64,000 nt of DNA from Candidatus Falkowbacteria bacterium (lineage in GTDB: Bacteria; Patescibacteriota; Patescibacteriia; UBA11705), in the NCBI GenBank assembly GCA_003518055.1, contig DOZJ01000002.1, positions 299,785 to 363,784 of the forward strand, read 5' to 3'. Positions 1-7,100 of this stretch are shown here, one piece after another. How positions within the stretch are numbered: position 1 is the first letter of the stretch; the number at the start of each line of letters is the position of its first letter. Position numbers and translations under genes: made by a program. The notes under the pieces were generated by a model. It saw only the letters and a list, made by a program, of their open reading frames with translations, had not been told where the DNA came from and ran no database searches.

Positions 1-153
1 GGATTTGATATAAATAAAGAGGCGGACAATGCGGCTGTAATCTTAACAAATGAAAAGTGTTTTTATCTAGCGATAATGGGCAAGGGTAATAATTATTGCT
101 TCAATAAAGAGAAAAACCAGGCACTGTATGAAAACATTGAAGGTGATTGGTAA
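1..153 (+). other. cas12a: Upstream coding segment of cas12a (gene continues beyond the left window edge); same frame as ORF 157..2313 and terminated by an in-frame TAA at 151-153
   Basis: Frame 1 is open from nt 1 to 150 and the other two frames have early stops. Translation ...EKCFYLAIMGKGNNYCFNKEKNQALYENIEGDW* aligns with the region immediately N-terminal to the conserved Cas12a PNKMIPKV motif. Confidence 0.7.
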
Positions 154-156
154 AAA

Positions 157-2313
157 ATGGAGTATAAATATTTGCCCAACACATCAAGGATGATACCGAA
201 GGTCACGACACAGAGAAAAGATGTTATTTCGCATTTTAAACATAGCGATGATGACTATTTATTGTCTAATCAAAAGTCATTTAACAAACCATTGAAAATA
301 AGTAAGGAGATTTTTGAGCTGAATAATAGGATATATTCACGATCAGATTTATCAGAATCGGTTATCAGAGATAAGGGTAATGGAAATGACGAAAAGAAAT
401 ATGTGAAATTGTTCCAAAAAGATTATTACGCAAAGTGTGGTGGTGGACATGATGTATATCAGCAGGCATTATGGAAATGGATCGATTTTTGTAAGGAGTT
501 TTTGTCATGTTATATGAGCTGTGAGTATTTTGATTTTTCTTCTCTCATACAAACAGCTGATTATGACTCAGTTGAGATTTTTTACGCTGATGTTGACAAA
601 GCCTGTTATGTGAAAAAGTTTGTCCAAATTAACGCACAGCAGTTAAACAGGTTGGTGTCTGAAGGGAAGGCGTATTTATTTAAGATATATAATAAAGACT
701 TTTCAGAAAGGAAAATCAAGATTACTGACGGAAAGGATAATCTGGAAACGATCATGTTAAAAAGCCTATTTTCAAAGGATAATATTGAAAGCAAGGTGAT
801 ACAACTTAATGGGGGTGCTGAATTATTTTTCCGTAAAGCCAGTGTTGATCGGGTGAATGATGAAAAAAGAAGTAAGAATATAGATATTGTAACCCATAAA
901 AGATATACGGAGGATAAATATTTCTTTCATTTTCCAATCACGATAAATTTTGGTGAGAAAGTAAGTGGTCAGCAATTTAGGGATAATGTTTTTAAAAAAA
1001 TCAAACAGGATGACCTTAATATCATCGGTATTGATCGTGGCGAAAAGCACCTGCTTTATTATTCGGTTGTGAGTCCACGAGGTGAATTATTAGAGCGAGG
1101 GAGTCTCAATCAGATTGAATCTGGCGGAGAAGTTCAAGAAAAAGAAATTTCCGAACAATTTGATGATCATGGTGCACTTAAAAGTGTTGAGTTGGTCGAA
1201 ACAGGGAATGAAGTTAAATATGTAGATTATCATGTATTGCTCGATTATTATGAGAAGAAACGCAATTTGGCTCGTCGCGATTGGCAGACAATTGGCAAGA
1301 TAAAGGATTTAAAATCCGGCTATTTATCACAAGTAATACATAAAATCTGTCAGTTAATATTGAAGTATGATGCCATTGTTGTCATGGAGGATCTGAATGT
1401 TGAGTTTAAAGCCAAGCGAGCAGCCAAAGTTGAGAAGTCAGTTTATAAAAATTTTGAGTTGGCATTGGCAAGAAAGTTAAATCACCTGATTTTGAAAGAC
1501 AAATCTATCAATGATATCGGAGGAACATTGAAGGCATATCAGCTGACACCTGTAATTCCTGCAAACGATGTTGGTAAATTTGATAAAGCTAGTCAATGGG
1601 GGATTATGTTTTATGTGCGCGCCAACTATACCTCAATCACCGACCCATTGACCGGTTGGCGGCAACATAAATATATTTCAAATTCAGATAACATCGGAAA
1701 AATTCAGGAATTTTTTAATCCGGATTCTGGAGTGCAAATAAACTATGATACTGAGAAACAATGTTATAGATTCAGTTATGGTCAGCAGTTTGATGACAAT
1801 ACAATAAAACAGTGGGATCTGTTCGCTTATGAAGGTTTAGAGCGGTTTTATTGGGATAATAAAAACAGATCAGTGAAGAAGTATAGTTTGTATACAGAAT
1901 TTGAACATATTTTTAGTGATTTGGATAAGTCAAAAAACATTAATCATCAGATTGAAGGTATGACCGGATTTGGGTGGAAAAGTTTAGTGTTTTTCTGGAA
2001 TTTATTGAATCAGATAAGAAATACCGATAGATTAAAGCAGGGGGATGAAAATGATTTTCTACAATCACCTGCTTGGTCGGATCGTCAAGAGTGTTTTTAT
2101 GATAGCCGCAAAGCGTTGGCTGGATTGCCTACAAATGGTGACGCCAATGGAGCTTTTAATATTTCGCGAAAAGGCTTGATTTTATTGGATAGAATAAAGA
2201 GATGCCCGGATCTTTCAAGGTTTGGTAATAATAACAATGGTCGTAATCCTGAAAATGGATATTTTATTTCTGATGTAGAGTGGGATAAATTTGTCCAATC
2301 TGCGAATGAATAA
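157..2313 (+). CDS. cas12a: Type V-A CRISPR effector Cas12a (Cpf1), C-terminal 718 codons (WED/PI/RuvC/Nuc region)
   Basis: The RMIPKV motif matches the Cas12a consensus. The RuvC-I motif IGIDRGEKHLLYYSVV, the block YLFKIYNKDFS...NLETIMLKSLFS...LNGGAELFFRKAS, and a C-terminal DANGAFNISRKG (RuvC-III) are also present. Gene order is cas12a-cas4-cas1-cas2-array. Confidence 0.9.
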   Translation: MEYKYLPNTSRMIPKVTTQRKDVISHFKHSDDDYLLSNQKSFNKPLKISKEIFELNNRIYSRSDLSESVIRDKGNGNDEKKYVKLFQKDYYAKCGGGHDVYQQALWKWIDFCKEFLSCYMSCEYFDFSSLIQTADYDSVEIFYADVDKACYVKKFVQINAQQLNRLVSEGKAYLFKIYNKDFSERKIKITDGKDNLETIMLKSLFSKDNIESKVIQLNGGAELFFRKASVDRVNDEKRSKNIDIVTHKRYTEDKYFFHFPITINFGEKVSGQQFRDNVFKKIKQDDLNIIGIDRGEKHLLYYSVVSPRGELLERGSLNQIESGGEVQEKEISEQFDDHGALKSVELVETGNEVKYVDYHVLLDYYEKKRNLARRDWQTIGKIKDLKSGYLSQVIHKICQLILKYDAIVVMEDLNVEFKAKRAAKVEKSVYKNFELALARKLNHLILKDKSINDIGGTLKAYQLTPVIPANDVGKFDKASQWGIMFYVRANYTSITDPLTGWRQHKYISNSDNIGKIQEFFNPDSGVQINYDTEKQCYRFSYGQQFDDNTIKQWDLFAYEGLERFYWDNKNRSVKKYSLYTEFEHIFSDLDKSKNINHQIEGMTGFGWKSLVFFWNLLNQIRNTDRLKQGDENDFLQSPAWSDRQECFYDSRKALAGLPTNGDANGAFNISRKGLILLDRIKRCPDLSRFGNNNNGRNPENGYFISDVEWDKFVQSANE

Positions 2314-2876: not shown

Positions 2877-3798
2877 TTTCGCGGAAAAACAAATATTGAT
2901 TGTGAAGAATTCTCAACAAACCGAATCCAAATTGCGGTTTCAGAATGATAATCTTGTGTTTGCGAACGAAGAAACTGAGAATCGCGTATCCTGTCATAAG
3001 GTCTTAGCGGTATTTGTTGTCGGAGACACATCTATCTCTACGGTCTTGTTGCGTAAGGCCCGCCAGCACGGTATATCTTTTTTCTTGCTCAATCGCAATT
3101 TAGAGTCATACGCGGAAATATTATCGTCAGCCGAAGGCAATTATCTCCTGCGGCAAAAACAATATACGTTTTTGTCTGAATTGTCTGCCGCTAAAAAATT
3201 GGTTGCAAATAAAGCTTTGAATCAGCTTATGCTTTTAAGAGGAGCTGGAAAGATAGCTGATTACGATCTGGGTATCTTCGCCAAAATCGAAAACGCTAAT
3301 ACTGATAAAGAACTTTTAGGGCTTGAGGGGAGCGTGACCAAGAAATTTTTCCAAAGTTATTTCAAGGAGATCGATTGGTATCGCCGTCTGCCGCGAGCCA
3401 AAGTTGATGTTAACAACCTCCTGCTGGATATTGGCTACACAATGATGCTCAACTATATTGATTCACTCTTGCACTTGTTCGGCTTTGATGTTTACAAAGG
3501 GTTTTATCATAAACTATTTTTTAAAAGAAAATCATTATCCTGTGATATCGTGGAACCGTTTCGATGTATTATTGATAAGCAATTATTGAAATCATTTAAT
3601 CTAAAACAAATTGACTTAAAAGATTTTACTCATCGGCAAGGAAAATATGCCGTTTCGTATGATAAATCCACAAAATACATGAGGATTTTCTTTGAAGTCA
3701 TAATGGATCATAAGGATGATATTTACCAGTATATTTATCACTTCTATCGTTATATGAACGGATCTGAGCCTGAATTTCCGGAATTTAAATTGAAATAA
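2845..3798 (+). CDS. cas1: Cas1 integrase (start at ATG 2845 or 2860, overlapping the cas4 stop)
   Basis: A 310-320 aa protein between cas4 and cas2. The ORF track's upstream extension overlaps cas4 in another frame, so the start was trimmed to the first in-frame ATGs near the cas4 stop. Confidence 0.75.
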   Translation: MSFALMLSANDFAEKQILIVKNSQQTESKLRFQNDNLVFANEETENRVSCHKVLAVFVVGDTSISTVLLRKARQHGISFFLLNRNLESYAEILSSAEGNYLLRQKQYTFLSELSAAKKLVANKALNQLMLLRGAGKIADYDLGIFAKIENANTDKELLGLEGSVTKKFFQSYFKEIDWYRRLPRAKVDVNNLLLDIGYTMMLNYIDSLLHLFGFDVYKGFYHKLFFKRKSLSCDIVEPFRCIIDKQLLKSFNLKQIDLKDFTHRQGKYAVSYDKSTKYMRIFFEVIMDHKDDIYQYIYHFYRYMNGSEPEFPEFKLK

Positions 3799-3799
3799 T

Positions 3800-4081
3800 A
3801 TGTTTATAATCAGCTATGATTTCAAAGACGACAAGGTTAGGGCACGTTTTTCCAAATACATCAAAAAGTATGGCCGCAAAATCCAATATTCCGTTTATGA
3901 GATCAAGAATAGTGATCGGGTCTTGAAAAATATCGCCAAAGAGATAGAATTGAAGTACGCAAAGCAATTCACAGGAGCTGACAGCATTCTTATCTTTCCT
4001 GTTTGTGAAACCTGCAAGAAAAAAGTAATGCGGTATGGTTACGCGGCTAACGAGGAAAAAGAGGTTATTGTTTTTGAATAG
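3800..4081 (+). CDS. cas2: Cas2
   Basis: 93 aa with N-terminus MFIISYDFKDDKVRARFSKYIKKYGRKIQYSVYE, typical of Cas2; immediately precedes the array. Confidence 0.85.
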   Translation: MFIISYDFKDDKVRARFSKYIKKYGRKIQYSVYEIKNSDRVLKNIAKEIELKYAKQFTGADSILIFPVCETCKKKVMRYGYAANEEKEVIVFE

Positions 4082-4258
4082 TGTCTTTTGACAATAAAAA
4101 ATACGAAAGAGTATTGAAAGTATAAATTTCTGTATTGATATTTATTAGACAAAAACCCCAGTCCTTATATTTCCAAAAAAGCTAATTTAAGCTAAAAAGT
4201 CGTGTTGGCCTTAGTTGCCTCATTTGCATCTTTTTGGCTTAAATTAGCAAACTGGACT
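4082..4258 (+). promoter_or_regulatory. AT-rich CRISPR leader with a long imperfect inverted repeat (arms about 4176-4199 and 4230-4252)
   Basis: AAAAAGCTAATTTAAGCTAAAAAG ... CTTTTTGGCTTAAATTAGCAAAC immediately upstream of repeat 1. Confidence 0.6.
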
Positions 4259-5470
4259 GTCTAATATCAATATTCAATTTCTACTTTCGTAGATCAACAT
4301 TGTTTTGCGTAAACTGCAACTGTCTAATATCAATATTCAATTTCTACTTTCGTAGATATTTCTCTTCCTGAACCTTGCTCTGTGTCTAATATCAATATTC
4401 AATTTCTACTTTCGTAGATGATTGTTCCACTTCGCCGTCCGGCCAGTCTAATATCAATATTCAATTTCTACTTTCGTAGATATAACTATATAAGTTAAAT
4501 AAATCAGTCTAATATCAATATTCAATTTCTACTTTCGTAGATGCAACGGCGTTCAGACATATATAGAGGTCTAATATCAATATTCAATTTCTACTTTCGT
4601 AGATGCCGACGTAATGGGTGTTAGGTCTATGTCTAATATCAATATTCAATTTCTACTTTCGTAGATGTTGGGTATTCGGATAATACAGCGAGTCTAATAT
4701 CAATATTCAATTTCTACTTTCGTAGATGAAATCCTGAATATGATTCGGCTAAAGTCTAATATCAATATTCAATTTCTACTTTCGTAGATATTCAGCCGTT
4801 GCTTCTCTAACATAGTGTCTAATATCAATATTCAATTTCTACTTTCGTAGATCTTAAGCAGGCTTTTTCAATTGACGCGTCTAATATCAATATTCAATTT
4901 CTACTTTCGTAGATCTCCGGCCCGATAAAATAGCGTCAGGTATAATATCAATATTCAATTTCTACTTTCGTAGATACTTCGTGAAAATCAAATCACCGTG
5001 TGTCTAATATCAATATTCAATTTCTACTTTCGTAGATTCTTGCAAATGCCGAAACGCCAATAATGTCTAATATCAATATTCAATTTCTACTTTCGTAGAT
5101 ATGGGGGAACTTGCGGGCGTGGCTGGTCTAATATCAATATTCAATTTCTACTTTCGTAGATGCTACCAATGGCACAAACCTGTATAGTCTAATATCAATA
5201 TTCAATTTCTACTTTCGTAGATGCAGTCCCAGACCTCCTTTTGATTAAGTCTAATATCAATATTCAATTTCTACTTTCGTAGATCCATCCTCATAACTGG
5301 CGTCATCAGCAGTCTAATATCAATATTCAATTTCTACTTTCGTAGATCAAAATGCCTGTGAATCCACCATAAAGTCTAATATCAATATTCAATTTCTACT
5401 TTCGTAGATATAGAAAACGCCACATCACCTGCGCGTCTAATATCAATATTCAATTTCTACTTTCGTAGAT
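4259..5470 (+). CRISPR. CRISPR array: 20 x 36-bp repeat GTCTAATATCAATATTCAATTTCTACTTTCGTAGAT with 19 spacers of 25-27 nt; repeat 12 (4940-4975) has a C>A variant at its third base
   Basis: Repeat starts counted at 4259, 4322, 4384, 4446, 4507, 4569, 4631, 4692, 4754, 4817, 4879, 4940, 5002, 5065, 5126, 5187, 5249, 5312, 5374 and 5435. The 3' end of the repeat, AATTTCTACTTTCGTAGAT, is the canonical Cas12a crRNA handle (UCUACU-N-GUAGAU stem), oriented for plus-strand transcription. Confidence 0.97.
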
Positions 5471-5894: not shown

Positions 5895-6215
5895 TCAGTT
5901 GAACTTGTCTAACTTCAGCACTTCGATCAACACGATTTTGAGCGCGTGATAAAATCTGGTAGTGATGGCGTCTTCATAATGATATTTGAGTTCAGCGGTT
6001 AGCCGTCTTTCATCTACGGTCATTGTCCACGGCTGATCAGGTCCGATACCCCAACGCAGACCATCATTGAAAATTTTTCTAATCAGCGATCGGCCGAATA
6101 AAACAAGTGAAATTCTAGTGGCGATCTCCTGATAATATTCTGTAATTTTTTCCTGCCCACCAATATCTTTTCGTCGTTTGATTTCAGTCGGGTCAAGGCG
6201 GAACAAGACGCTCAT
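5895..6215 (-). CDS. Hypothetical protein (106 aa)
   Basis: ATG start; preceded on the minus strand by a hairpin and terminator region; no recognisable motif. Confidence 0.45.
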   Translation of the reverse strand: MSVLFRLDPTEIKRRKDIGGQEKITEYYQEIATRISLVLFGRSLIRKIFNDGLRWGIGPDQPWTMTVDERRLTAELKYHYEDAITTRFYHALKIVLIEVLKLDKFN

Positions 6216-6289
6216 GACAGCCTCCCTGATGGTTTTGAGGTTCGATTGGCTTATTTTAGATGATTATATTGCTCATGTCAAGGTACCGG

Positions 6290-6318
6290 TTGACTTTTTA
6301 TCGCGGATCAGCTATAAT
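6290..6318 (+). promoter_or_regulatory. Sigma-70-type promoter TTGACT-N17-TATAAT
   Basis: ttgactttttatcgcggatcagctataat; drives the downstream non-coding stretch. Confidence 0.6.
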
Positions 6319-6324
6319 GTAACA

Positions 6325-6531
6325 TACACTAAACAAGGTGTTCCGCCACCGGCGGCTGTTTGTATGCAAAAACCCAAGAGGCACCGGCACCGAATATTTA
6401 TTCACTAGCCGGGCCCCCTCTCAAAGGATTGTCGAGGCGAACCTCGCTGTCCCCGGGATTATGCCTACGTCGACAGAACTCAAGGTGGCTTGGGGTGTCC
6501 CGTCTTTCTCAACGGGCCCCCTCTTTTTTTT
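6325..6531 (+). ncRNA. Candidate small structured RNA of about 200 nt (unknown class)
   Basis: Sits between a consensus promoter and a GC-rich hairpin followed by T8 (6497-6531). GC-rich with a GNRA-capped hairpin (GTCGAGG-CGAA-CCTCGCTGTC) and a 12-nt direct repeat CGGGCCCCCTCT at about 6409 and 6515. The ORFs called here are in a compositionally odd frame. Confidence 0.4.
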
Positions 6532-6591
6532 AAAAAAATTTTTGTGGTATAATATAATCAAGAATAATTTATTAATCATTAAAATAAAAAT

Positions 6592-6750
6592 ATGGACGAA
6601 CCAAAAGCCATGTATGTGTGCAACGCTTGCGGTCATATGTCCGAGGATCCGGGGACGCACTGCGATCACGAAATGAAAAAACAATGTGATTGCGGCTCAG
6701 GTAAGATGGCTGAAGACTGCTGTCTGCCGCCGGCGCCGAGACCGTAATTT
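6592..6750 (+). CDS. Cys/His-rich 52-aa micro-protein (putative metal-binding), below the ORF-track length cutoff
   Basis: Own extended -10 (TGGTATAAT at 6544-6552). Translation MDEPKAMYVCNACGHMSEDPGTHCDHEMKKQCDCGSGKMAEDCCLPPAPRP. Confidence 0.45.
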
Positions 6751-6896: not shown

Positions 6897-7100
6897 ATGG
6901 ATTTATCCACTATCGGCTTCACACTGCAGACCTTGGGTGAAGTTATTATTGCCTTGACTGTTCTTAGTGTTCACCGGCGCTTGAGGCACGAGCGAAAGAT
7001 CGACAAAAAAGTTTCTGAGAGTGTGGAAACGGAACAAATTTTTGGCGTGATGTCTATAATTTTAATTATCGTCGGTTTTATTTTACAGGTTTACGCTTAA
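6897..7100 (+). CDS. Small membrane protein (2 TM), hypothetical
   Basis: 67 aa, hydrophobic N- and C-terminal segments. Confidence 0.4.
   Translation: MDLSTIGFTLQTLGEVIIALTVLSVHRRLRHERKIDKKVSESVETEQIFGVMSIILIIVGFILQVYA

Follow-up and report, generated by a model that had tools for sequence, protein, structure and literature searches.

What does the non-coding DNA ahead of a transketolase operon encode in an uncultured Candidatus Falkowbacteria bacterium (Patescibacteria, candidate phyla radiation)? The region lies in a 64,000-nucleotide (nt) stretch of a groundwater metagenome assembly (GCA_003518055.1, contig DOZJ01000002.1), which is referred to here in its full length as the window; identical copies of the region are also found on several other assemblies and on an ENA contig of 435 kb. 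An earlier note, made from the DNA letters alone, had described a structured transcript of about 200 nt at this site, followed by a cysteine-rich peptide, and had named a small RNA (sRNA), a 6S-like RNA and a metal-responsive leader as possible identities of the transcript. On balance, and with some reserve, we favour the first of these: positions 6324-6531 of the plus strand would constitute an independently transcribed small non-coding RNA gene that represents a new, clade-restricted family and acts in trans rather than as a leader of the genes behind it. The sRNA reading draws its support from a conserved promoter and a terminator, both of the element's own, and from a fold that covaries in a second species. 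The candidate RNA, which belongs to a familiar kind of small RNA gene and had not itself been described, matches no known RNA family.

Promoter, terminator and fold of the candidate RNA

Relatives of the adjacent transketolase were sought with one genome per species, which yielded 80 loci. Only the closest of these, from Falkowbacteria CG10_big_fil_rev_8_21_14_0_10_39_11 (hereafter CG10_39_11; 83% identity of the transketolase protein), carries the RNA (nhmmer E = 1e-12; covariance model 87 bits), and the order of RNA, peptide gene, gene for a 67-amino-acid (67-aa) protein and transketolase is unchanged there.

The expression signals proposed in the earlier note are borne out by this comparison. 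The promoter TTGACT-17-TATAAT agrees with the sigma-70 consensus in 11 of 12 positions, its aligned counterpart in CG10_39_11 (TTGACA-17-TATAAT) in all 12, and it stands back to back with a minus-strand promoter (6281-6253). The predicted transcript of about 205 nt ends, as had been stated, in a hairpin followed by eight T residues; its start was deduced from the spacing to the -10 hexamer and its 3' end from the U tract. A simple terminator scan missed the hairpin because its 5' arm contains two bulges, and ViennaRNA predicts it. In CG10_39_11 the terminator is a different hairpin (-15.0 kcal/mol) followed by U7, with three pairs changed on both sides. An own promoter, an own Rho-independent terminator and a probably non-coding sequence, the marks of a stand-alone sRNA, are found in both species. 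The description of the transcript as GC-rich is correct in relation to the other non-coding stretches of this region (about 55% versus 30-35%), but not in relation to nearby genes (50-57%).

The segment folds with a minimum free energy (MFE) of -74.8 kcal/mol, which corresponds to z = -3.0 versus dinucleotide shuffles (homologue, z = -3.3). When folded separately, the two sequences arrive at a common predicted architecture: a 5' hairpin, a stem P1, a long bulged stem P2, a three-way junction that carries the arms P3 and P4, and the terminator (Table 1). P1 and P2 together form a rod-like closing stem of about 23 base pairs (bp) with bulges. The GNRA-capped helix of the earlier note, in contrast, has to be given up, as the cap in question (6438-6441) is a CGAA tetraloop closed by a G-C pair in a hairpin whose sequence is not conserved. 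The 12-nt direct repeat reported there is exact, although it is absent from the homologue; a direct repeat of at least 12 nt arises in 0.08% of 5000 mononucleotide shuffles.

The two RNAs are about 61% identical overall, and their conservation is very uneven, ranging from 93% in the distal part of P3 to 18% in P4. Written as RNA, the conserved P3 element reads CCGGCACCGAA(U)AUUUAUUCACUAGCCGG and comprises a stem, an ACC/ACUA internal loop and an AU-rich apical hairpin. A kink-turn reading of this internal loop was dropped, as neither its 2n position nor its non-canonical stem is in keeping with that motif. RNAalifold, applied to a plain MAFFT alignment, finds eight pairs that are changed on both sides; in an alignment fitted to the structural model, standard pairs fill 98% of the pair cells and the double-sided changes number 13, versus none or one when the pairing partners are slid by one to three columns. 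The clearest case is the five-bp helix P3a, in which three pairs are switched (A-U to U-A, A-U to G-C, and G-C to A-U) between invariant flanks that leave the alignment unambiguous. In P4 and the terminator, other hairpins have been substituted at the same positions. The G-U pairs and the orientation of promoter and terminator place the RNA on the plus strand, and it is unlikely to be coding because its most conserved block contains a 1-nt indel and the two sequences share no reading frame. As comparisons of two sequences go, the structure is well supported; in absolute terms the evidence is thin.

Searches for further homologues returned little. The exact 19-base pattern GGCACCGAAN{4,9}TTCACTAGCC, which derives from the conserved element and which diverged copies would escape, had five matches in metagenome contigs, four of them chance occurrences in coding DNA and the fifth the known homologue; the single match in viral contigs, inside a 243-aa open reading frame (ORF), is likewise due to chance. 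Neither nhmmer over the fetched loci, including the 80 transketolase loci, nor the covariance model over 89 sources (about 0.95 Mb, mostly loci of Patescibacteria and DPANN) found anything beyond the window copies and the CG10_39_11 homologue. A covariance-model match of 98 nt in one further locus (L082; E = 0.34) was discarded as spurious. In the data reached, the putative RNA family is therefore clade-restricted, with two distinct members. It should be noted that in an assembly of the homologous locus (L102, 1005-1473) a Joint Genome Institute gene call with a 42-aa product covers both the homologue's RNA and the peptide ORF; this is a mis-call, and the real 49-aa gene is uncalled there.

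Table 1. Positions, in window coordinates, of the candidate RNA, its structural elements and the adjoining signals and genes
Feature	Position	Strand	Remarks
Divergent sigma-70-like promoter TTGACA-17-TAAAAT	6253..6281	-	11/12 consensus; serves the 106-aa gene (5895-6215); both hexamers kept in the CG10_39_11 homologue
RNA-gene promoter TTGACT-17-TATAAT	6290..6318	+	11/12 consensus; homologue 12/12 at the aligned position
Candidate small RNA, about 205 nt	6324..6531	+	MFE fold, homologue, covarying pairs, no Rfam match
5' hairpin (ACACU/GGUGU)	6326..6341	+	Conserved; two pairs longer in the homologue
Closing stem, 5' strands (P1 6345-6350, P2 6356-6375)	6345..6375	+	A G-C pair of P1 is A-U in the homologue
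Arm P3 of the three-way junction	6377..6421	+	Double-sided changes in three of the five P3a pairs
Distal part of P3, CCGGCACCGAAUAUUUAUUCACUAGCCGG	6384-6412	+	Most conserved stretch, 93% identical
12-nt direct repeat CGGGCCCCCTCT, copy 1	6410..6421	+	3' strand of P3; not conserved in the homologue
Arm P4, variable hairpin with CGAA cap	6426..6452	+	Hairpin kept in the homologue with other length and sequence; 18% identity
Closing stem, 3' strands (P2 6455-6476, P1 6484-6489)	6455..6489	+	Computed folds
Intrinsic terminator (bulged hairpin 6492-6521, U8 6524-6531)	6492..6531	+	-16.1 kcal/mol (ViennaRNA)
12-nt direct repeat CGGGCCCCCTCT, copy 2	6513..6524	+	3' arm of the terminator
Extended -10 element TGGTATAAT of the peptide gene	6545..6553	+	Upstream of the ORF; read in the sequence
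51-aa Cys-rich mini-protein gene	6592..6747	+	Zinc-ribbon/HMBD-like module, then SEC-C-like CxCGSGx6CC
67-aa two-helix membrane protein gene	6897..7100	+	Ends 4 nt before the start of the transketolase N-subunit gene (7104); orthologue 61% identical, same position

Known RNA classes and rival readings

The Rfam search that the earlier note had called for returned no gathering-score match to a housekeeping RNA; with Rfam 15, the whole window contains no match to any family at this threshold. At E ≤ 10, the interval 6200-6620 has a sole match, that of the terminator to Listeria sbrA (E = 4), which is at the level of chance for a terminator, and the homologous locus yields only snoRNA noise (E ≥ 6). 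ARAGORN found no transfer RNA (tRNA) and no transfer-messenger RNA (tmRNA) in the window. With neither tRNA, tmRNA nor gathering-score Rfam family, these 64 kb are unusually bare for a segment of a bacterial genome. Two further candidate relationships were set aside: an RNase P-like P4 pseudoknot (CCAAG...CUUGG), recognized by eye, was dropped, its complementarity being absent from the homologue; and a connection with the Cas12a locus, which lies about 800 nt upstream, is unlikely, as the RNA contains no repeat-like sequence and no Cas12a-type repeat is present in 12.8 kb around the homologue. Among described systems, trans-encoded sRNAs with loop seeds (the 6C sRNA of Actinobacteria, RNAIII-type RNAs) resemble the candidate in being stand-alone genes with a sigma-70 promoter, an intrinsic terminator and a length of 100-250 nt, in which a hairpin loop holds most of the conserved sequence and the stems covary. 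They differ from it in the absence of any sequence or Rfam relation, in that the conserved loop is AU-rich here instead of C-rich, and in that the closing stem and three-way junction are more elaborate than in most base-pairing sRNAs.

Several observations weigh against a stand-alone, trans-acting RNA. The covariation comes from a single pairwise comparison, and the higher of the two counts (13) was obtained with the structure-fitted alignment; only two distinct RNA sequences exist, and about 20 further assemblies of the two species, being identical or different by one base in the aligned region, add no covariation. A duplex scan of the translation start regions at both loci gave nothing beyond about 2.5 standard deviations and no shared neighbour target. 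Furthermore, in both species the RNA shares the strand of the downstream operon and precedes it by about 60 nt, an arrangement that a cis-regulatory leader would have as well; and in the window, pairing of copy 1 of the repeat with the terminator's 5' arm could reach -16.1 kcal/mol, as much as the terminator itself. A riboswitch or protein-dependent attenuator would accordingly sense a ligand or metal and gate read-through of the terminator into the operon of peptide, 67-aa protein and transketolase genes. Such a leader would share with terminating riboswitches the succession of promoter, structured domain of aptamer size, terminator, short spacer (60-70 nt from the end of the terminator to the ORF in both species) and ORF on one strand; the repeat, by which the 3' strand of P3 becomes identical to the 3' arm of the terminator, could provide the choice between terminator and antiterminator. 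However, this mutually exclusive pairing is possible only in the window, and the antiterminator model was rejected on the grounds that both the repeat and any equivalent pairing are absent from the homologue. Moreover, in both species the MFE folds of the nascent transcript keep the core intact, and the terminator's 5' arm stays free. Between terminator and ORF lies the extended -10 element that the earlier note had rightly attributed to the peptide gene; it forms part of an 11-nt block, TGGTATAATAT, that is invariant between the two species, whereas the surrounding AT-rich spacer has diverged. Homologues of the downstream genes are not linked to the RNA either: in seven other neighbourhoods of the peptide family the upstream space amounts to no more than 33-170 nt and leaves no room for it, three neighbourhoods of the 67-aa family do not contain it, and the covariance model detected no recurrent upstream RNA over the 80 transketolase loci beyond the CG10_39_11 homologue. 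No riboswitch family in Rfam and no known aptamer is matched. The stand-alone gene is preferred because of the unconserved repeat, the intact nascent core, the conserved extended -10 element and the downstream-gene homologues without the RNA, and we regard a leader as unlikely. For the metal-responsive leader of the earlier note, the peptide gene's own promoter, the lack of a conserved antiterminator and the short upstream space in the peptide family are all unfavourable; the RNA and the peptide gene are neighbours and do not form a unit, and the RNA is unlinked to the peptide family.

A highly divergent housekeeping RNA, such as 6S RNA or the RNA of the signal recognition particle (SRP), might escape the Rfam models in bacteria of the candidate phyla radiation. 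With 6S RNA (RF00013 and relatives) the candidate shares a length of about 200 nt, a strong promoter and a long imperfect closing stem formed by its 5' and 3' parts; more generally, a constitutive-type promoter and a rod-like stem with a conserved internal element recall protein-binding housekeeping RNAs, and no other RNA gene was found in the 64 kb. Nevertheless, the Rfam models for 6S, SRP, RNase P and tmRNA have no match at E ≤ 10 in a stretch of about 400 nt from either species. The central single-stranded bubble of 6S RNA is missing from both folds, which instead form a three-way junction with one to four unpaired nt per side (on the 5' side, P2 and P3 are 1 nt apart), so that the 6S-like reading of the earlier note is not supported. 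Nor is there a conserved GNRA-capped domain IV with the loop motifs of SRP RNA, as P4, the sole hairpin with a tetraloop, is less conserved than any other part; the earlier note's own judgement that neither an SRP-RNA nor a 6S signature is convincing thus agrees with the Rfam results and with the structural definitions of both RNAs. In addition, a housekeeping RNA should be widespread, and the 19-base pattern, within the limit stated above, led only to the known homologue, just as the covariance model recovered nothing else from about 0.95 Mb of Patescibacteria and DPANN loci. Its presence in two species only also sets the candidate apart from 6S RNA, and a housekeeping function appears very improbable to us. 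A slim chance also attaches to the view that no functional RNA exists, and that a conserved intergenic stretch (promoter-proximal DNA or a decaying gene) owes its fold to GC content and close relatedness. Two sequences are all that is known, z-scores of -3 are modest, and related sequences can exceed shuffle controls without any structure. Such a by-product would, however, be difficult to reconcile with the pairing retained in 98% of the pair cells at about 61% identity, with the double-sided changes of P3a between unambiguously aligned flanks, with the replacement of P4 and the terminator by other hairpins in place, with a consensus promoter and a terminator that bracket the segment in both species, or with the lack of a shared reading frame.

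For the favoured stand-alone RNA, the following course of events may be envisioned. A strong constitutive-type sigma-70 promoter would start the transcript, and a constitutive intrinsic terminator would end it at about 205 nt. The RNA would then fold as a rod-like P1-P2 stem topped by the three-way junction, in which P4 appears to need only the form of a hairpin and P3 would present a distal element of stem, internal loop and apical AU-rich hairpin that has hardly changed between the two species. This distal element of P3 may be the functional site of an expressed, trans-acting RNA that either docks a protein, as rod-shaped ribonucleoprotein RNAs do, or pairs or kisses with AU-rich regions of target mRNAs; control of the downstream gene by the RNA would not be part of this scheme. 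No 20-mer complementary to the conserved P3 loop with up to three mismatches is present in the window. Rather improbable, in our opinion, are two bolder possibilities, both with the internal loop of P3 as the site of action: that the RNA is the subunit or decoy of a clade-specific ribonucleoprotein (an analogue of 6S or Y RNA with a new architecture), or that it is a new three-way-junction riboswitch which gates the operon of zinc mini-protein and transketolase.

The cysteine-rich mini-protein downstream of the RNA

The peptide that the earlier note had quoted for the ORF starting with ATG at 6592, with its seven cysteine and three histidine residues, is correct, but its length is 51 aa instead of 52 aa and the ORF ends at 6747, stop codon included, instead of 6750. 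A 49-aa orthologue occupies the same position in CG10_39_11 and retains all seven cysteines. The proportion of differing nonsynonymous sites (pN) is 0.26 versus 0.81 for synonymous sites (pS), with the latter saturated; the resulting pN/pS of about 0.3 is akin to that of the neighbouring 67-aa gene. By these comparative measures, the 51-aa ORF is a real and separate gene, with its own predicted extended -10 promoter and under purifying selection.

When homologues of the peptide were sought, as the earlier note had proposed, a family of about 18 emerged. HMMER, run exhaustively over 1.8 billion representatives, returned five further small proteins, together with three matches to short stretches of very long proteins, and a follow-up profile search raised the family to 17 clusters. 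In an alignment of 18 sequences, C10, C13, C32, C34, G35, S36, C43 and C44 are invariant and Y8, C24 and G37 nearly so. The conserved ORF, the seven cysteines kept in the homologue and the six invariant cysteines of the family support the proposal that the peptide binds metal. It is probably a metal-binding mini-protein with two four-ligand sites (Cys4 or Cys3His), as far as can be judged from its sequence, and the metal is probably zinc. The first site would be formed by an N-terminal pair of zinc-ribbon knuckles (CxxC ... H/C-C; CPxC in some members), a module that is duplicated in some members of the family. The second site, C-terminal CxCGSGx6CC, has the spacing of the SEC-C metal-binding tail of SecA and YchJ.

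Both modules resemble known domains without belonging to them in full. In the C-terminal CDCGSGKMAEDCC, both the CxCx8C(C/H) spacing and the GSGK core are those of the SEC-C/SecA C-terminal domain (PF02810; also present in YchJ), as is evident from its segment C32-D-C34-GSGKMAED-C43-C44; unlike SEC-C proteins, however, its matches remain below curated thresholds, and the motif is fused here to an N-terminal zinc-ribbon/HMBD-like knuckle in free-standing proteins of 50-94 aa. The N-terminal pattern Y-x-C-x2-C-G...P-G-x-(H/C)-C fits HMBD (PF19335) and the zinc ribbons of rubredoxin and desulforedoxin, whereas the second knuckle of the peptide is H-C instead of C-P-x-C and no transporter is attached. 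Matches to Pfam are weak but consistent: Zn_ribbon_6 is hit by 8 of the 18 members, HMBD by four (best E 1e-5) and SEC-C by two (best E 0.0037); the protein of the window itself does not match PF02810 and has its best Pfam hit, at E 0.03, to Zn_ribbon_LapB. YchJ and SecA align with the family profile through their C-termini, at E values of 0.07-0.3. An AlphaFold model has a mean pLDDT (predicted local distance difference test) of 74, and its nearest folds are desulforedoxin/rubredoxin-like, none of them significant. No metallothionein family of the SmtA/BmtA type appeared in the Pfam or NCBIfam results.

Two conserved gene orders were seen elsewhere in the family. In every case, the gene of a two-module member (L094, 4001-5041; L095, 4001-5100; L117, 1787-2865) overlaps the start of a gene for a BrkB/YihY-family membrane protein by 1-4 nt, which suggests translational coupling and a shared function and hints at a membrane-associated role. 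Single-module CPxC members (L100, 4001-4159; L116, 3501-3653) are flanked by an HtrA-like protease on one side and by a convergently oriented UvrC gene on the other.

Gene neighbourhood and significance

The region begins with Cas12a, Cas4, Cas1 and Cas2, followed by a CRISPR array, a 95-aa membrane protein, a 106-aa protein encoded on the minus strand, the RNA, the 51-aa peptide, the 67-aa membrane protein and the two transketolase subunits. The 106-aa protein is transcribed divergently from the RNA and has a 110-aa counterpart in CG10_39_11 (3681-4013 of that locus). There, the RNA promoter and the 110-aa gene are separated by an inserted 382-aa gene (Pfam Nuc_deoxyri_tr2; 4014-5162, minus strand), and the divergent promoter pair, still present, now serves this inserted gene. 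Pfam, NCBIfam and PADLOC returned nothing informative for the 106-aa and 95-aa flanking proteins, and the 106/110-aa protein is without any match in them. The 67-aa protein is annotated by NCBI as a hypothetical protein of Falkowbacteria. Its pairing with transketolase is kept in CG10_39_11; only three further and more distant homologues were found, all of them in other gene orders without RNA, peptide or transketolase pairing.

An in-frame TAA at 151-153 (…NIEGDW* K M EYK…) splits the Cas12a gene (window 1-2313; L001, 1391-5722) into two ORFs, one of 723 aa with the REC lobe and one of 718 aa with PI and RuvC. This stop codon is seen in independent assemblies, and the interrupted Cas12a could be naturally split, a pseudogene or the site of read-through. 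The array (4259-5470) consists of 20 copies of a 36-nt Cas12a-type repeat, GTCTAATATCAATATTCAATTTCTACTTTCGTAGAT, with spacers of 25-27 nt; repeat 12 (4940) carries one substitution. A Logan assembly of the same locus has a single repeat, which reflects either a collapsed assembly or a strain difference.

Bacteria of the candidate phyla radiation have tiny genomes, and to our knowledge no regulatory RNA from them has been characterised experimentally; a literature search for such RNAs found none. Neither of the two findings alters any general principle, and two species are so far the only ones with the RNA. With the peptide comes a small, hitherto unnamed family of mini-proteins that join a zinc ribbon with a SEC-C-like motif, proteins of a kind often overlooked by gene callers. 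The RNA, with a conserved and covarying predicted fold between promoter and terminator, provides for these bacteria a concrete candidate that is testable in groundwater metatranscriptomes.

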